Shown here: piece by piece, positions 21,150 to 54,969 of the stretch
How the letters are laid out: each line of letters opens with the position of its first letter
Numbering within the stretch: position 1 is the stretch's first letter
Source of the DNA: Callorhinchus milii
Taxonomy: Eukaryota
Direction of reading: 5' to 3'
NCBI RefSeq assembly: GCF_018977255.1
Contig: NW_024704742.1
Span: forward strand, 50,780,001-50,844,000
Length of the DNA: 64,000 nucleotides
Notes under the pieces: generated by a model
What the model saw: the letters and a program-made list of their open reading frames with translations, nothing else
Told to the model about the DNA's origin: nothing
The model's database searches: none
Position numbers and translations under genes: made by a program

Positions 21150-21550
21150 GTTGGACAGGGTGCAATGAGGAAGGAGAGCAGAGAGGCGCATGCGCCGTGG
21201 AGCACGTGACGGGGGCGGGGAAGTATCGGCGCCGTGATTGGCTGAGGCGCGGGTGGGCTGCGCAGGCGCTGTGCTGGCATTTCGTGCGGCGGTTGAATCA
21301 GCTCCGCTTCTCACAGCCGCCAAAACGCTCCTCGGCCTCGTATGACTTCCACTGCCACTAAATCCCCTCTCACGCTGCCTGCGTCTTCCCAGGCGAGTCT
21401 CAAACGGTGAGTGCCTCTCGCTGACCTGCCCGCGCCGCTCCCTCTTCCCACCCGAGCCCCCGCCTCCCTCTGCCGCCGTCAGGGCTGGAGAGGCTCAGAA
21501 ATTGAGCTCGGAGACTGACTCCTCCTGTAGGCCCGGCCCCGGCCGGGGAG
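21150..21550 (+). promoter_or_regulatory. CpG-island promoter of the UBE3A-like gene
   Basis: Palindromic GGCGCATGCGCC (21185-21196, NRF1 type), CACGTGAC (21203), GC box GGGGGCGGGG (21211), GGAAGT, inverted CCAAT (21237), followed by a CG|GTGAGT donor at 21406/21407. Confidence 0.8.
21342..21406 (+). CDS. UBE3A-like putative first coding exon (MTSTATKSPLTLPASSQASLK-R)
   Basis: 65 nt from ATG to donor, phase 2, in frame with the exon at 27620. Kozak context is weak and no homology is recognisable. Confidence 0.55.
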
Positions 21551-22249
21551 TGGGGTGTGTGTGTGGGGGGGGTGTTTTAATATAGATTTTAAACTGCTCC
21601 TCTTGAAAGATTTCAGCAATATATATATATATGTATATATTTTTGGGGGTTGGGGACATTTTAAAGGTTCGATCCTGTCAGGTTTTGGGCCCTGTCGTGT
21701 TTTTTTTTAATGTGTTGCGCACACACACACACACACACACACGCACACACACACACACTCGCGCGCGCACATTTTTTTTTAAAAAAAACAAATTGGAAGA
21801 GAGGGTTCAATCTGATTTTTTTTAAAACAAAAAGAAGGATCATTGATTGGTATCGCTTTCTCCCTCCTGCGAAATTGTTGTGTTGTAGGAGTTTGCATTG
21901 CGGATCAGAGTATCGCTCAGCGGAGTTGCAGTAATGTCTGGTTGTTCTATCCATCTATCTATCCATCTATCTTAGTTACTGAATGTTTTGGGGGCTGTAG
22001 CGTGCTTACGAAGTAATAATAATTTGTTCATATGATCTTGTGCTTTGATTATATTCTTAGTCACAAAATGAACCTAATAATCTTGCACTTGATGTAGTGC
22101 CTTATCGCATTGTCTAGATGTCTCAAAGTGCTTCACAGATTATACTGCAAAGTGAATTGACTATGTTTTGTGGGTGAAGCGCAGCAACCAATTGCGTACA
22201 ACAGTGTCCCACAAGCAGTTGTGGATTGAGTAATAAAATTATTATTAAT

Positions 22250-22870
22250 ATTATTAATCCCAAAGAGAAGTAAAGGAGCAAAATGACTTGGGGATTCAGA
22301 TCCACAAATCTCTATAAGTAACTCACAGATAGATAAGGCTATTAAAAAAGGCCAATGGGCTTTGGGGCTTTACGACCAGAGGGATAGAATATAAAAGTGA
22401 AGATGTGATGCTGAATTTGTACTATGGTTAGACCATATTTGGAGTACCGTGGCCAATTCTGGTCTCCGCACTATAAGGATATAGCATTGATGGAAAGAGT
22501 ACAATAATTTGCATTTATATAGCGCCCTTCACGCGCGGTAGCATCCCTGAGCTCTTAGGCCTTTTTTCATTAAAGAAACAATGTTTAAGAGGGGACCTAA
22601 TAGTGATGTTTATAAAAGAGTTCAATAAGATTAACAAAAATAGACTGTTTCCACTGTTTGGGGAGTCCATAACTAGGGGACACAAGTGTAAGATAGCGAC
22701 TAGAGGATATAAAAGAGAATTTAGGACGAACAACTTCACACAGTGGGTAGTGAGATTGTGGAGCTTGCTGCCTGAAATGATGGTTGAATTGGATAGTATA
22801 GATGCATTCAACGGAAAGCTGGATATACACGTAAGGGAGAAGGGAATAGAAGGGTGTGGGAGAGAGTAAA
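22250..22870 (+). mobile_element. CR1 ORF2 3' fragment
   Basis: RGIEYKS..VMLNL, TRGHK.K, FTQWVVRLWSLLP and DAFNGKLD motifs. Confidence 0.8.
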
Positions 22871-24489
22871 GAGTGGGTGAAGACTTGAGTGAAGTATAAA
22901 CACCACAGCTGTCTGAGCTACGAAGTGATCCAAGCTGACATGCAGGTGGTCTACAAATGTACAATTTGTAAATTTTACAGTTTGTAAATTTACATTCATT
23001 CTATTGCACTTTTATCAATTGGGTTACAAAAAGTTGAACTATCAGTATTTTATTTAGTGTTGGTCTAGGCCGATGCTTCATTGCAGTGCTGCAGATCATT
23101 GTCAGATATCTGTCCTTCAGAAGACACATTAAACTGAGGTCCTGTCTACTTGTTCAGGTGGATAATAAAGATCCTGTGAAAAGAGAAGTGAGTTTTGCCT
23201 GGTGTCCTCCAGATAAAATTAGTCATTCACTTAATGGTAGTTTGTGGGACTGGACTGGGTTTAAATTGACTGCTGGGTTCACTAACAAAGACTCAATCAC
23301 CATACTTCACAGTAAAAATCCTGTTAAATGGTTTGAGATGTTTGATAATATAATTAGGTGCTACAACAATGCAAGGATTATTCATTCTTGAAGTAGCAAA
23401 AGGTTATGGGGCAGGAAGAAGGTGGTTGGAGAAATCTAGAACTTAAGACTGCAGAGAATGGTGGTGTATTAGTGCTCCAACTTGCTGAATTATTTCCTCT
23501 CCCTAATAGGGAATTGGCCTGTAGCGTATTGTTTGTAGCATCCTCACTAGCAAGAGGACCTGGGTTTGATTCCCGGGCAGGGCTAAACGTTAGACAAGTT
23601 TCCTTACTCCACATGCCTTAGTTTACCTAGAAATAAGTAGTCGATTGGCAGATCGCTTTTTTGGGGGTAATAATCCCTTTCAAAATAAAAATAAATNAAA
23701 AAATAAATAATAATTTGGCCATGACTGGGACACTGCTGGGCGCAATTGGCTTTTGCGTTTTGCCCACAGAATATACAGTCAATTCACTTTACAGTATATT
23801 CTGTGAAGCACTTGAAGAAGTCTCAAAGATGTGATAAGGCGCTTTATCAAATGCAAGGGTTATTATTATTGTGTTGTGGGGGCTTGACTTGCCCACGTGC
23901 TGTTATGAGTTCTTTATCTTTTTCTGACGGTATTCTGCTGTGCTATCAGGAAGGCATGTAAGTGGGATGATTTCCTGCCGCCAGTCACTGGTCTGCCCTT
24001 CCATGTCCTGCCAATGAGCAAAGGCCAGTTGTGCTATCATTAGCATCGCCATCCTTACAATGAATATATGGAGGGAAACAAAATCCTTGCTTTTAGCTTA
24101 ATACATTATCTTGTGACATTGCAAAAGGTGTGTTTTTAAAAAATATATTTTCAGTGGGCATGGAAATTGAGAGCAACAGAATTGATACCCAATGTTAAGG
24201 GATGATGAATGATAAGATATGCTAGGGTTCCACAGCCTCAAAATGAGACTTCTTAGAGGAGATCTTGTCAAGCTATGTCAAATAAACTTTTTTAATACAT
24301 CACCATTCTCTGCAGTCTTATCAAACTACGTCAAATAAATCAGTTATCAGCTATGCTAATAAGGCAGTAGGATGCGCAGTTACAAGTTCAGAATTGGGAT
24401 TATAGTTTTAAGAATGGCACCGGGAGGTCTATATGTTTACATAGAGGGTAATCAACAGATTGGAGAATAGGTAAGTTAAATGCCATAAG

Positions 24490-52807: not shown

Positions 52808-54468
52808 GTATTTGTTCTATTTTGTGTTTTTTTTGCTCATTCTGGTGTGACTGATGCTTAAAAAAAGATATCACTGTTAGAATCCAGTATATCAAGCTCA
52901 ATTATAGCATACATAAGATTAAGGTAAACCTTCTACACTGCCTATTTAGCATTGTCGTCAAAAGCACACCCTATTCCACAGAACTCCAGTGTGTCATTTC
53001 TACTTTCCTATGTCTTTTTCTGAAAAAGTGCAGAAGTACACATCATTTGGCTGTGGTTTGGACATTCTAGAAACTGTATTAATACCTTGTCAAATTTCAG
53101 AATGTGTTATAGTTTTTGAAGCCTTATTCCATTATTCAATGGAGATTCAAAACCAGACTGTAACCCACTGCAAAACAAGACCATAGTCCATTCCACCACT
53201 TTTGAACGCTTTCCAAAATCTGCATAATTCATTTTTATTTACTCATTAATTTAGACAAACTAGCCAATCAGTGCAGTTGATGTAGTATATATGGCCTTTC
53301 AGAAGGAATTTGATAAGGTGCCATATAATAAACCAGTTAGCAAAATTAAAGCCTATGGGATAAAAGGGACAGTGGCAGCATTGATACCTTGGGAGATATC
53401 AATGGGAGGTCCTCCCGAAGTGAAAGGCGCTATGCAAATGTAATTTTGTTGTTGTTGGTGGAAACAGATTCAATAATAACTTTCAAACAGGAATTGGATA
53501 AGTGCTTAAAGAGGAAAAAATTGCAAGGATATTGGAAAGAGTGGGGGAGTGGGACTGACTGTAGCTCTTCCAAAGAGCTGGCCCAGGATTGATGGGCTAC
53601 ACGACCTCCTTCTGTGCTATAATATTCTATGATTTACATATCTTAAAATAATGGGGAAGGAGAGGAACTAGTTTAGTGATCTCTTATTCTTACATAGCCT
53701 AGGAACACTGTTCATGGATATCTTTCAGATATTTTGGAATGATAAAAGTTTGAACCTCTGAGACCTGCATATGCATAGAATTTGACTTTTATTTCATTTT
53801 TCCCCTGATGTGTATGTCCTACTTATTTGACCACAATGTAAATGTAAGAAGCATTTATTTTCAGTTGAGGGAAAAGAAAACTGCATGAATATGGTAAAAT
53901 AGGATATACACTGTAATCTTCTGGAAGTACAGATGGTAAGAAATTTGAATTGCTGCTGCTGATTGAATAGTGTGCGTTGTGAGGTTACATGATATCCTGA
54001 TACTTTGGTTGATAAAAATTAGGGAATGAGGCAAATGAGTGTATTGTCAAATTGTACAGTTACACATGTTGCCCATGTTTATAGTGCAACTCATAATGAG
54101 CAACCCATAGAGTACTACATCTGACCTCTAATGTTTTTTTGTTGGTTATGATGTGAAATATTACTGTGCACAAATTGGCTGCGAGTTTGCCTACAAAATA
54201 GTCACTACATATTGGTGTAAATCCTATGAAATACATTGAGACTTCCTATTTACTATTATTAATACCATTTGCTAGTACTAATATTAATCCTTGCATTTGA
54301 TATAGGTCCGTATATACTCAAAATGTCTGTTTTACAGGCTTTTCTGTAATGGGTAGTGACTATTTGTTGGCAACTTGCTAGATTATGAATTGTGCAGAAA
54401 TTTTAATAACCTGCCTGATTTCAATTTAATTTTAGTTTTTCTTTTCTCTTTCCTCAATGCTCTTATAG

Positions 54469-54612
54469 AGATTTCTGGGCAATAACTCACAGTCTCCCAG
54501 AAGAACAGAAGCGCCAGTTTCTGCAGTTTACTACTGGTTCTGACCGGGCACCTGTTGGTGGCCTTGGCAAAATAAAGTTGATCATCACCAAGAATGGGCT
54601 AGATTCAGATAG
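54469..54612 (+). CDS. UBE3A-like exon 9 ([34 protein letters not shown]...DSD-R)
   Basis: 144 nt, long pyrimidine tract plus tatag acceptor, gtatgt donor, phase 2 to 2. Confidence 0.96.
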
Positions 54613-54848
54613 GTATGTCGCAGTTTAATGTAAATATTTTTCCTATCAATGTCAAAACTTCCTCTACAAATTAGATCCTTTTTTTAAAAAAAGTTGTAGA
54701 TTTTTTGTGATAAGGCACTGGCCTTTGGTATTCAAGTGCAGAACAGGTCAATATCCTGGTGACCTACTACTGTTCTAGATCATAATCCTCAAGTTTCAAA
54801 ACAAACTACTGTGAAGCACCAGTTTATGAATTGTTTCATTATTTCCAG

Positions 54849-54969
54849 ATTACCAACAACACATACATGCTTCAATGTCCTCCTGCTTCCAGACTACTCC
54901 AGCAAGGACAAGCTCAAGGAAAGATTACTCAAGGCAATTACATACTCAAAAGGTTTTGGCATGCTGTAA
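54849..54969 (+). CDS. UBE3A-like last exon ([39 protein letters not shown])
   Basis: 121 nt to TAA. Catalytic Cys codon at 54868-54870. The ten exons sum to 2610 nt, i.e. 869 aa plus stop. Confidence 0.97.

Follow-up and report, generated by a model that had tools for sequence, protein, structure and literature searches.

The UBE3A-type gene beside CNGA1 in Callorhinchus milii, the elephant shark, raises the question of whether it is the species' own UBE3A at a new site, a duplicate that arose within chondrichthyans, or a sister copy kept from an early vertebrate genome duplication. We analyzed a window of 64,000 nucleotides of contig C1, in which the gene lies, together with the remainder of the genome and the related proteins of other species.

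An intact UBE3A-like gene lies beside CNGA1

The UBE3A-like gene occupies positions 21342-54969 of the window on the plus strand and comprises 10 coding exons, which encode 869 aa with an AZUL and a HECT domain and contain no internal stops. The exon model was built by tblastn with the catshark ortholog and by reading the splice sites. All nine introns are GT-AG, and the coding sequence totals 2610 nt, i.e., 869 codons and one terminal stop. The 10-exon gene with an open frame and canonical splice sites given in the preliminary description therefore holds at these coordinates, and the protein it encodes after splicing agrees in every residue with RefSeq XP_007890906.1 (Callorhinchus milii, 869 aa). 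By Pfam, residues 27-81 match AZUL (E 9.3e-16) and residues 570-868 match HECT (E 1.5e-101).

Exon 1 (21342-21406, 65 nt, from the ATG to a GT donor; tblastn with the catshark ortholog) is preceded by an in-frame TGA 15 codons 5' of the ATG. It lies in a CpG-rich stretch of the plus strand (21001-21500, GC 0.63, CpG observed/expected 0.81) that is likely, judging from its composition, the promoter or 5' UTR of the gene, the promoter function being putative. The CpG ratio is 0.06-0.59 in most adjoining 500-bp bins and 0.74 in 21501-22000. Exon 2 (27620-27942; tblastn and splice sites) encodes the AZUL zinc-binding domain matched by Pfam and a linker, and exon 3 (28611-29821, 1211 nt) encodes the N-terminal helical domain, a Cys-rich insert, and an altered LxxLL loop. 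Exon 3 aligns to residues 124-540 of human E6AP (8jrn_C, E 3e-163) and matches UniRef A0A4W3ICI0 at 100%. The HECT region begins in exon 4 (47858-48002, 145 nt), which has the length and phase of exon 4 of the UBE3A gene on contig C4 (see below). Exons 5 (49697-49902, 206 nt), 6 (50715-50879, 165 nt), 7 (51623-51778, 156 nt), 8 (52734-52807, 74 nt), and 9 (54469-54612, 144 nt) are likewise of the same length in both paralogs. The catalytic Cys837 (THTCFN), the stop codon, and, at the C-terminus, KGFGML all fall in exon 10 (54849-54969), and the last 40 residues of the protein are 100% identical to those of the catshark ortholog. Downstream of the stop, a pattern scan finds the poly(A)-signal-like hexamer ATTAAA (55091-55096, plus strand) as the first candidate signal and AATAAA at 55913 as the next. 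Intron 3 contains a degenerate (TG)n/(CA)n/(GT)n microsatellite of ~10 kb (31771-41714; Tandem Repeats Finder) with a 25-N gap at 39553-39577, and GC and AT skew flip at this repeat.

The right neighbor is represented by the last large exon of a CNGA1-type channel gene on the minus strand (61387-62841), with Pfam matches to Ion_trans, cNMP_binding, and CLZ. Against PDB, this exon scores highest with CNGA1 (865 bits, compared with 812 for CNGA3 and 752 for CNGA2), which bears out the tail-to-tail arrangement with CNGA1 that had been described; the two stop codons are 6.4 kb apart. To the left, two 5' coding exons were read as open reading frames on the minus strand (5544-5759 and 6740-6958), and they probably resemble the NFXL1 N-terminus. 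Immediately to the left of the window, this strand also carries zf-NF-X1 exons (C1:50776181 and C1:50737186), and the sole other zf-NF-X1 cluster in the genome is on contig C2. Neither Pfam nor database protein searches with the left-neighbor pieces found a named match, and a protein search with a possible, uncertain first coding exon (12086-12246, minus strand, ATG at 12246, GT donor at 12086) gave no match. Thus, the head-to-head arrangement with NFXL1 that had been described holds in part: an NF-X1-type gene lies on the minus strand, and judging from position, this zinc-finger gene is taken to be NFXL1. At least 9 kb, full of retrotransposon fragments, separate it from the ATG of the UBE3A-like gene, so that the two genes are divergent but have no tight common promoter.

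Canonical UBE3A is located on a second contig

The C. milii genome contains exactly two UBE3A-type loci, one in the window and one on contig C4. A genome search with exon 3 returned the window itself and C4:77052099-77053355 (61%), and a search with mammalian UBE3A returned 51 rows, of which 9 belong to the C4 locus, 9 to the window, and 33 to weaker HECT matches elsewhere. In the big exon, identity to mammalian UBE3A is 84% for the C4 copy versus 62% for the window copy. The C4 copy is also 100% identical to the NCBI entry 'UBE3A isoform X3 [Callorhinchus milii]' and lies downstream of an ATP10-type gene and tail-to-tail with a CNGA3-type gene. It is the second, more mammal-like UBE3A that had been predicted to lie beside CNGA3 and ATP10A. 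Both by this position and by its place inside the canonical clade (98/96; see below), the C4 gene is the ortholog of human UBE3A, whereas the window gene lies beside CNGA1 and outside that clade.

The two C. milii proteins share 66% identity overall. Of nine exons compared between the genes, seven are equal in length and two differ by multiples of 3, and all phases are the same. Because this structure is common to both copies, an origin of the UBE3A-like gene as a retrocopy is excluded.

The two genes lie in collinear paralogous blocks

The order and orientation of genes are alike on C1 and C4: a GABA-A-receptor-like cluster, an ATP10-type P4-ATPase, the UBE3A-type gene, and a CNGA gene tail-to-tail with it. 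On C1, Cys-loop receptor exons at 50.04(-), 50.14(-), 50.34(-), and 50.45-50.48(+) Mb are followed by the P4-ATPase (50.624-50.626 Mb, plus), the NF-X1 zinc-finger exons (50.737-50.776 Mb, minus), the UBE3A-like gene, hereafter UBE3AL (50.801-50.835 Mb, plus), the last coding exon of CNGA1 (50.841-50.843 Mb, minus), and a NIPA-family gene (50.885-50.894 Mb, plus). On C4, the series is mirrored, with Cys-loop exons at 77.765(+), 77.578(+), and 77.425-77.431(-) Mb, the P4-ATPase at 77.128-77.135 Mb (minus), UBE3A at 77.036-77.056 Mb (minus), and the end of CNGA3 at 77.0207 Mb (plus). A third ATP10-type gene with four Cys-loop genes alongside forms a third GABR-ATP10 block on C13. In this description, the names CNGA1, CNGA3, and UBE3A come from scored comparisons, and ATP10D/ATP10A, GABRB1/GABRB3, NIPAL1, and NFXL1 are assigned from family membership, paralog number, and position.

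Both UBE3A-type genes thus sit, as expected of ohnologs, in collinear paralogous blocks with other duplicated families, namely CNGA1/CNGA3, ATP10D/ATP10A, and the GABA-A receptor clusters. The CNGA1/CNGA3 and ATP10D/ATP10A pairs are kept in bony vertebrates too, whereas the UBE3A pair is, according to the protein searches, confined to chondrichthyans. PMC1626109 gives the tail-to-tail arrangement of UBE3A and CNGA3 as the ancestral state, seen in platypus, opossum, chicken, and fish. PMC9803222 treats CNGA1-3 as products of 1R/2R, and its main text has no mention of UBE3A, ATP10, or GABR.

UBE3AL is found across chondrichthyans

'UBE3A-like' orthologs occur among the cluster members of 19 named chondrichthyan species, and in the species listed for both genes, canonical UBE3A is on a different contig from the UBE3A-like gene. 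A protein search listed 120 matches, 7 of them chondrichthyan (77-100% identity) and the other 113 at 59-62%; every named row among the latter is a bony vertebrate, and a few rows from Logan assemblies are nameless. No bony-vertebrate UBE3AL was present among these 120 ranked matches, which cover annotated proteins. Of two batoid assembly contigs, one of 3038 nt codes for 781 residues and one of 1826 nt for 241, in both cases without a break, and since these span several exons, the contigs represent spliced transcripts.

The gene is annotated already, but in the literature searched, we found no discussion of it. RefSeq 'ubiquitin-protein ligase E3A-like' and UniProt 'Ubiquitin-protein ligase E3A' (A0A4W3I5D9, A0A4W3ICI0) are the same gene, and these entries carry an automatic name only. 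In C. milii, both paralogs are currently named UBE3A. One UniProt model has a differing N-terminus from a repeat-like ORF (window 26950-27132) and is probably wrong.

Divergence is concentrated in the N-terminal half

UBE3AL has the features of the UBE3A/E6AP subfamily, i.e., a HECT domain with the catalytic Cys, AZUL, and an E6AP-type helical domain. It shares with UBE3A/E6AP (human 8jrn, 8gcr, 1c4z) the domain order AZUL, N-terminal helical, HECT, as well as 10 coding exons interrupted in the same intron phases. Also retained are the catalytic Cys, RRITVLY, THTCFN, KGFGML, and the four AZUL cysteines; THTCFN with Cys837 and the AZUL residues C42, C47, C52, and C81, which we take to be metal ligands, are invariant in 31/31 aligned sequences.

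Compared with mammalian UBE3A, the HECT lobes are 86% and 79% identical, whereas identity is 66% for the N-helical domain, 52% for AZUL, 25% for the linker, and 22% for the variable insert; this agrees with the earlier impression that the N-terminal half is the more diverged. Between the two C. milii copies, dN amounts to 0.33-0.35 for the N-terminal half as against 0.11 for HECT, and dS is saturated (undefined by NG86, 1.4-2.1 by LWL85). In UBE3AL, a Cys-rich insert with CCSQQK (invariant in 18/18 UBE3AL sequences) takes the place of the acidic KDEDKDEDE loop of UBE3A, and 8 residues are inserted after AZUL. All 18 UBE3AL sequences carry one additional residue that breaks the LxxLL spacing, whereas LQELL is invariant in 13/13 canonical rows. 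Altogether, the two paralog groups differ at 69 alignment columns that are invariant inside each group.

UBE3AL branches outside canonical UBE3A in the ML tree

The maximum-likelihood (ML) tree comprised 33 rows and 906 columns (LG+C20+F+G4), with tunicate, protostomes, and coral as named outgroups, and contained no cyclostome (lamprey, hagfish), amphioxus, gar, bichir, or coelacanth sequences. In the full-length tree, the UBE3AL clade (100/100, stem 0.598) lies outside canonical UBE3A, which unites 3 chondrichthyan and 16 bony-vertebrate rows (98/96, stem 0.120), and the vertebrate clade has a support of 99/95. The topology was unchanged with another outgroup set (support 95) and with HECT alone (90/89). 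The ML topology thus fits a duplication after the tunicate split and before the chondrichthyan/bony-vertebrate split, and UBE3AL did not turn out to be the recent lineage-specific duplicate that would have spoken against the preliminary description; synonymous sites between the two copies are saturated. With the rows used, the tree fits 1R and 2R alike.

A rival reading is that UBE3AL arose as a chondrichthyan-specific duplicate before the chimaera/elasmobranch split, landed by CNGA1, and evolved so rapidly that its basal placement is an artefact. The presence of UBE3AL in chondrichthyans only would fit, and its fivefold longer stem is a setting for such an artefact, as the long branches of the outgroups could attract it. 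A constraint that keeps all 10 chondrichthyan rows in one group is rejected at full length (-9.05 lnL, AU p 0.032), but remains allowed with HECT alone (dlnL 2.96, AU p 0.289), and the N-terminal partition is unstable to the point of being unusable (UBE3AL stem 1.33, placed beside a herring with support 25, root inside teleosts). Because of these two partitions, the rejection is modest. Against a chondrichthyan-specific duplication, the same ML topology is recovered whichever of the two outgroup sets is used and also with HECT alone, which evolves slowly, and a chance insertion between an ATP10-type gene and CNGA1 would be needed that matches the strands of ATP10A-UBE3A-CNGA3 exactly. We therefore regard this reading as unlikely.

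Far less probable still is a decaying or silent copy, either an incipient pseudogene or an artefact of annotation, given the open 869-codon frame, the canonical splice sites, the spliced batoid transcript contigs, and a dN far below the saturated dS. Moreover, the C. milii protein retains 82-84% identity to elasmobranch orthologs across the holocephalan/elasmobranch split, dated to ~420 Mya in PMC6238376, and its catalytic and zinc-binding residues are invariant. As for a sole UBE3A ortholog that was translocated and then evolved rapidly, it has practically no probability: the C4 gene beside CNGA3 rules it out by its 84% big-exon identity and its 100% match to 'UBE3A isoform X3', and the chondrichthyans listed with both genes have them on different contigs.

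UBE3AL as a probable early-vertebrate ohnolog

Taken together, UBE3AL is very probably an early-vertebrate (1R or 2R) ohnolog, a functional UBE3A/E6AP paralog that was retained here and lost in bony vertebrates. The sister copy from early genome duplication proposed in the preliminary description is supported by the tree and by the C1/C4 collinearity, with the AU test adding modest weight. In our model, one of the early vertebrate genome duplications doubled the whole block of GABA-A receptor cluster, ATP10, UBE3A, and CNGA. The copy beside CNGA3 and ATP10A would have become canonical UBE3A, and the copy beside CNGA1 and ATP10D would have been kept in chimaeras, sharks, and rays and lost in the line of bony vertebrates, a loss that we infer from annotated proteins.

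After the duplication, the UBE3AL stem would have evolved ~5 times faster than UBE3A, with most of the change falling in the N-terminal half, where the acidic loop gave way to the Cys-rich insert and LxxLL was disrupted. As predicted from its sequence, UBE3AL would act as a HECT E3 ligase that takes ubiquitin from an E2 onto Cys837 of the C-lobe and passes it to substrates, and it would keep the N-terminal AZUL zinc finger. The N-terminal changes suggest altered partners or regulation rather than altered chemistry. In common with sharks and rays, the elephant shark would thus keep an intact and very old sister of the Angelman-syndrome gene UBE3A that humans and other bony vertebrates do without.

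An intact UBE3A-like gene in the window

The plus-strand stop-to-stop frames contain UBE3A-like exons spanning 21.3-55 kb of the window. We modeled this gene (hereafter UBE3AL; 21342-54969, +) by tblastn with the catshark ortholog, after which the splice sites were read. The resulting ten coding exons, all on the plus strand, lie at 21342-21406, 27620-27942, 28611-29821, 47858-48002, 49697-49902, 50715-50879, 51623-51778, 52734-52807, 54469-54612, and 54849-54969. All introns are GT-AG (9/9), and the spliced sequence of 2610 nt comprises 869 codons, the sole stop being the terminal one. 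The intact 10-exon, 869-aa gene claimed in the preliminary description is therefore borne out, with exactly matching exon and codon numbers and canonical splice sites. The RefSeq protein XP_007890906.1 (Callorhinchus milii) is identical to the spliced model at every letter. Pfam places an AZUL domain at residues 27-81 and a HECT domain at residues 570-868, and exon 3 aligns with residues 124-540 of human E6AP (E 3e-163). Altogether, the sequence of UBE3AL is intact and conserved and displays all the hallmarks of E6AP-type HECT ligases. Among the 14 sequencing runs listed as containing exon 3, none is recorded as RNA.

An in-frame stop lies 15 codons 5' of the ATG, and the surrounding 500 bp are CpG-rich. 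The first ten residues of one UniProt model of the gene (A0A4W3ICI0, 856 aa) map to a frame at 26950-27132 in repeat-like sequence rather than to the exon at 21342; the 21342 start is backed by the RefSeq model and by all elasmobranch orthologs.

Several repeats surround or interrupt the gene. Intron 3 holds a degenerate dinucleotide repeat of ~10 kb (31771-41714) with two strand switches, running as TG (31771-34696), CA (34702-39532), and GT (39578-41714). The second of these switches coincides with a 25-N gap, and the repeat may represent a collapsed or mis-joined region of the assembly. Fragments of non-LTR retrotransposons with reverse transcriptase ORFs (Pfam RVT_1, E 4e-34 to 6e-15) occupy the spacer between the putative NFXL1 and UBE3AL as well as intron 3, at 483-1547(-), 8400-10300(+), 14573-15436(-), 18383-19384(+), and 46564-47301(+). 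In addition, one short interspersed element, recognized by a shared translated motif in the ORF lists, is present in many copies, for example at 4537-4728, 20992-21297, 23725-23961, 28094-28348, 43006-43164, 57830-58255, and 63782-63985; a 71-aa query including its tail gave 149 genome matches.

A second, canonical UBE3A lies on another contig

When UBE3AL exon 3 was searched against the whole assembly (991.5 Mb, in which the window is positioned at C1:50780001-50844000), the single other match was found on a second contig, C4 (C4:77052099-77053355), at 61% identity. Of the 51 rows obtained with mammalian UBE3A as the query, 9 lie at the C4 locus, 9 lie in the window, and 33 are weaker HECT-domain matches elsewhere. 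A second, more mammal-like UBE3A, as anticipated in the preliminary description, is thus present on C4 beside a CNGA3-type gene, its big exon being 84% identical to mammalian UBE3A, compared with 62% for the window copy. The C4 exon is 100% identical to the NCBI protein “UBE3A isoform X3 [Callorhinchus milii]”, which contains the C4 spliced model.

The two copies occupy collinear blocks

The neighborhoods of the two genes share their members and orientations. In the window, a CNG channel gene has its large last exon on the minus strand (61387-62841), 6.4 kb tail-to-tail from the UBE3AL stop; this exon scores best against CNGA1 (865 bits, compared with 812 for CNGA3 and 752 for CNGA2). Its sole strong paralog in the genome (C4:77019359-77020699, +) stands ~15 kb tail-to-tail from the C4 UBE3A and belongs to a gene for which CNGA3 gives the best score in both halves. 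At E <= 1e-10, the search of the whole genome with the CNGA1 last exon yielded two matches only, itself and the C4 CNGA3-type exon. CNGA2- and CNGA4-like exons were missing at this threshold, which could reflect loss, a gap in the assembly, or exon structure. A 526-aa open frame between CNGA3 and UBE3A on C4 (C4:77027195-77028772, +; L004:7195-8772 in the searched piece of that contig) had no match in Pfam.

Upstream of each UBE3A-type gene, and on the same strand as that gene, lie the C-terminal exons of a P4-ATPase (C1:50624036-50626399, +; C4:77128461-77134967, -). The C4 ATPase exon has exactly three genome matches, which are itself, C13:638308 (on a third contig), and C1:50626172. Three matches agree with the expected size of the ATP10 trio; PDB is without an ATP10 entry, and the best matches were to other P4-ATPases. 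A 584-aa reverse transcriptase ORF (L015:5239-6990, in a piece of C4) was observed inside the span of the C4 ATPase exons. Further upstream, Cys-loop receptor genes form clusters of four on C1 (50.04-50.48 Mb) and three on C4 (77.42-77.77 Mb), and on C13 four such genes lie next to the third ATP10-type ATPase. NIPA-family genes are found just beyond the window (C1:50.885-50.894 Mb) and at C4:78.23-78.28 Mb. The C1 and C4 blocks thus both comprise a GABR-like cluster, an ATP10-type gene, a UBE3A-type gene, and a CNGA gene opposing it. We compared these blocks with the human gene order at 4p12 and 15q11-13.

To the left of UBE3AL lies a zf-NF-X1 gene, with minus-strand matches outside the window at C1:50776181 and 50737186, which two minus-strand exons inside the window continue. 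Its position suggests that this gene is NFXL1; searches of the ESM Atlas (72-aa exon), of proteins (putative exon 1), and of Pfam (two short exons) gave no named match. A whole-genome search with the exon at 5544-5759 gave 149 rows, any signal being obscured by a repeat at the end of the ORF. A GC-rich region (GC 0.575) immediately downstream of this gene's possible exon 1 contains ~1 kb of tandem low-complexity sequence rich in Pro, Ser, and Leu (11100-12100), which is open in three minus-strand frames.

A tail-to-tail arrangement of UBE3A and CNGA3 has been described for fish and opossum and, at 6.8 kb and 2 kb respectively, for platypus and chicken (PMC1626109; also PMC5339648). The main text of the CNGA paralogon paper (PMC9803222) places the origin of CNGA1-3 in 1R/2R, and UBE3A, ATP10, and GABR do not occur in it.

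UBE3AL is found across cartilaginous fishes

The search of UBE3AL exon 3 against proteins of 714-2035 residues gave 595 matches, the best 120 of which were examined. Among these 120, the C. milii protein matched at 100% and six elasmobranch “UBE3A-like” clusters at 77-84%; the other 113 matched at 59-62%, and each named one is a canonical bony-vertebrate UBE3A. The members of the UBE3A-like clusters name 19 chondrichthyan species, and the gene ranges over the chimaera, squalomorph and galeomorph sharks, skates, sawfish, electric rays, and mantas. In every chondrichthyan species listed for both genes, canonical UBE3A lies on a separate contig. Two batoid assembly contigs carry uninterrupted coding sequence across several exons (781 residues in 3038 nt and 241 residues in 1826 nt), which indicates that they are spliced transcripts. 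Among 20 cluster representatives checked by name, there was no lamprey, hagfish, or lancelet; these comprised one primate UBE3A fragment, a mollusc, a coral, arthropods (insects, crustaceans, a spider, and a mite), flatworms, a tunicate, a protist, and five nameless entries.

Origin of the second copy

We computed a maximum likelihood tree (LG+C20+F+G4, 906 columns) from 33 rows, comprising 7 UBE3AL, 3 chondrichthyan UBE3A, 16 bony-vertebrate UBE3A, and 7 outgroup sequences, with neither cyclostomes nor lancelets among them. Vertebrates are recovered at 99/95, UBE3AL at 100/100 (stem 0.598), and canonical UBE3A, with UBE3AL outside it, at 98/96 (stem 0.120). Replacing the outgroup set and removing the very long Ciona branch left the topology unchanged (95). 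If the duplication had instead occurred within chondrichthyans only, all ten chondrichthyan rows should form one clade; forcing them to do so costs 9.05 lnL units for the full-length alignment (AU p 0.032). The HECT domain alone yields the same topology (90/89), yet here the AU test leaves a chondrichthyan-only duplication unrejected (p 0.289). No sense can be made of the tree from the N-terminal part by itself, in which outgroup branches are 1.9-3.3 long and UBE3AL falls next to a herring (support 25). Overall, the tree agrees with an ancient duplication without being conclusive on its own, and the collinear synteny bears most of the weight.

Other origins fare less well. A translocated single copy is ruled out by the second, mammal-like UBE3A on C4. 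Across the nine exons compared between UBE3AL and the C4 gene, lengths are equal in seven and differ by multiples of three in two, while all phases are the same; such shared lengths and phases imply duplication at the DNA level, and the conserved introns rule out a retrocopy. Decay into a pseudogene is rejected on the basis of the open frame, the conservation of orthologs, the spliced batoid transcript contigs, and the level of dN relative to saturated dS. Specifically, dS between the C. milii paralogs has reached saturation (NG86 undefined; LWL85 1.4-2.1), and dN amounts to 0.11 for HECT and 0.33-0.35 for the N-terminal half. The earlier claim of a retained early-duplication sister copy is accordingly supported by the collinear C1 and C4 blocks together with the tree. 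These results support UBE3AL as a retained early-vertebrate (1R or 2R) ohnolog that cartilaginous fishes have kept and that is missing from annotated bony-vertebrate proteins.

The catalytic half is conserved and the N-terminal half diverged

UBE3AL and UBE3A are 66% identical overall; identity is lower in AZUL (46%), the linker (22%), the variable insert (18%), and the N-helical domain (63%) and higher in the HECT lobes (85% and 78%). Between chimaera and elasmobranchs, identity is 82-84% for UBE3AL and 91% for canonical UBE3A. UBE3AL conserves the AZUL cysteines, RRITVLY, the catalytic THTCFN (Cys837), and the C-terminal KGFGML, and in 69 columns the residue is fixed inside each paralog group and different between the groups. 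Where UBE3A has an invariant acidic KDEDKDEDE loop, UBE3AL carries a Cys-rich insert with an invariant CCSQQK (18/18). Similarly, the LQELL that is invariant in UBE3A is broken in UBE3AL by a one-residue insertion (18/18); the LxxLL motif is a partner-binding element of UBE3A. AlphaFold2 on UBE3AL (31-row alignment) gave a mean pLDDT of 42.2 and a pTM of 0.33, too poor to read the Cys-rich insert.

From these residues, UBE3AL would be expected to form a ubiquitin thioester on Cys837 and ligate substrates, the AZUL domain would bind zinc, and the diverged N-terminal half would imply partners or regulation other than those of UBE3A. We consider it possible, if rather unlikely, that UBE3AL, with its acidic loop replaced and its LxxLL destroyed, has gained a new N-terminal function as a ligase and is more than a redundant spare. 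The di-cysteine of CCSQQK might, at a guess, bind metal or serve as a lipid anchor of the palmitoylation type.

Implications

UBE3A ranks among the leading neurodevelopmental disease genes: Angelman syndrome results from its loss, and increased dosage has been linked to autism. To our knowledge, it has been treated as single-copy in vertebrates. The available text of a review of UBE3A evolution (PMC5339648) contains none of the words “paralog”, “shark”, or “lamprey”, and that of Sacerdot et al. mentions UBE3A solely as an imprinted locus (PMC6193309). Searches of the open-access literature (main articles) and bioRxiv turned up no description of a UBE3A paralog in chondrichthyans. Automatic annotation already records the gene, as “UBE3A-like” in RefSeq and “UBE3A” in UniProt. 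UBE3AL adds to a well-known family a new member that has so far escaped discussion, and it is not a new kind of gene. Its interest is moderate, and lies in the disease gene involved and in the rewritten N-terminal half.

As a sister copy ~450-500 million years old and still intact in chimaeras, sharks, and rays, UBE3AL adds another case of ohnolog loss in the bony-vertebrate line. It also brings UBE3A into the GABR-ATP10-CNGA paralogon, the ancestral block of which would already have had UBE3A tail-to-tail with a CNGA gene. The pair offers a natural comparison of a conserved catalytic half with a rewritten N-terminal half. If the proposed N-terminal function is real, ancestral UBE3A functions would be divided between two enzymes in cartilaginous fishes, and the pair would be a natural dissection of which functions lost in Angelman syndrome need which N-terminal element.
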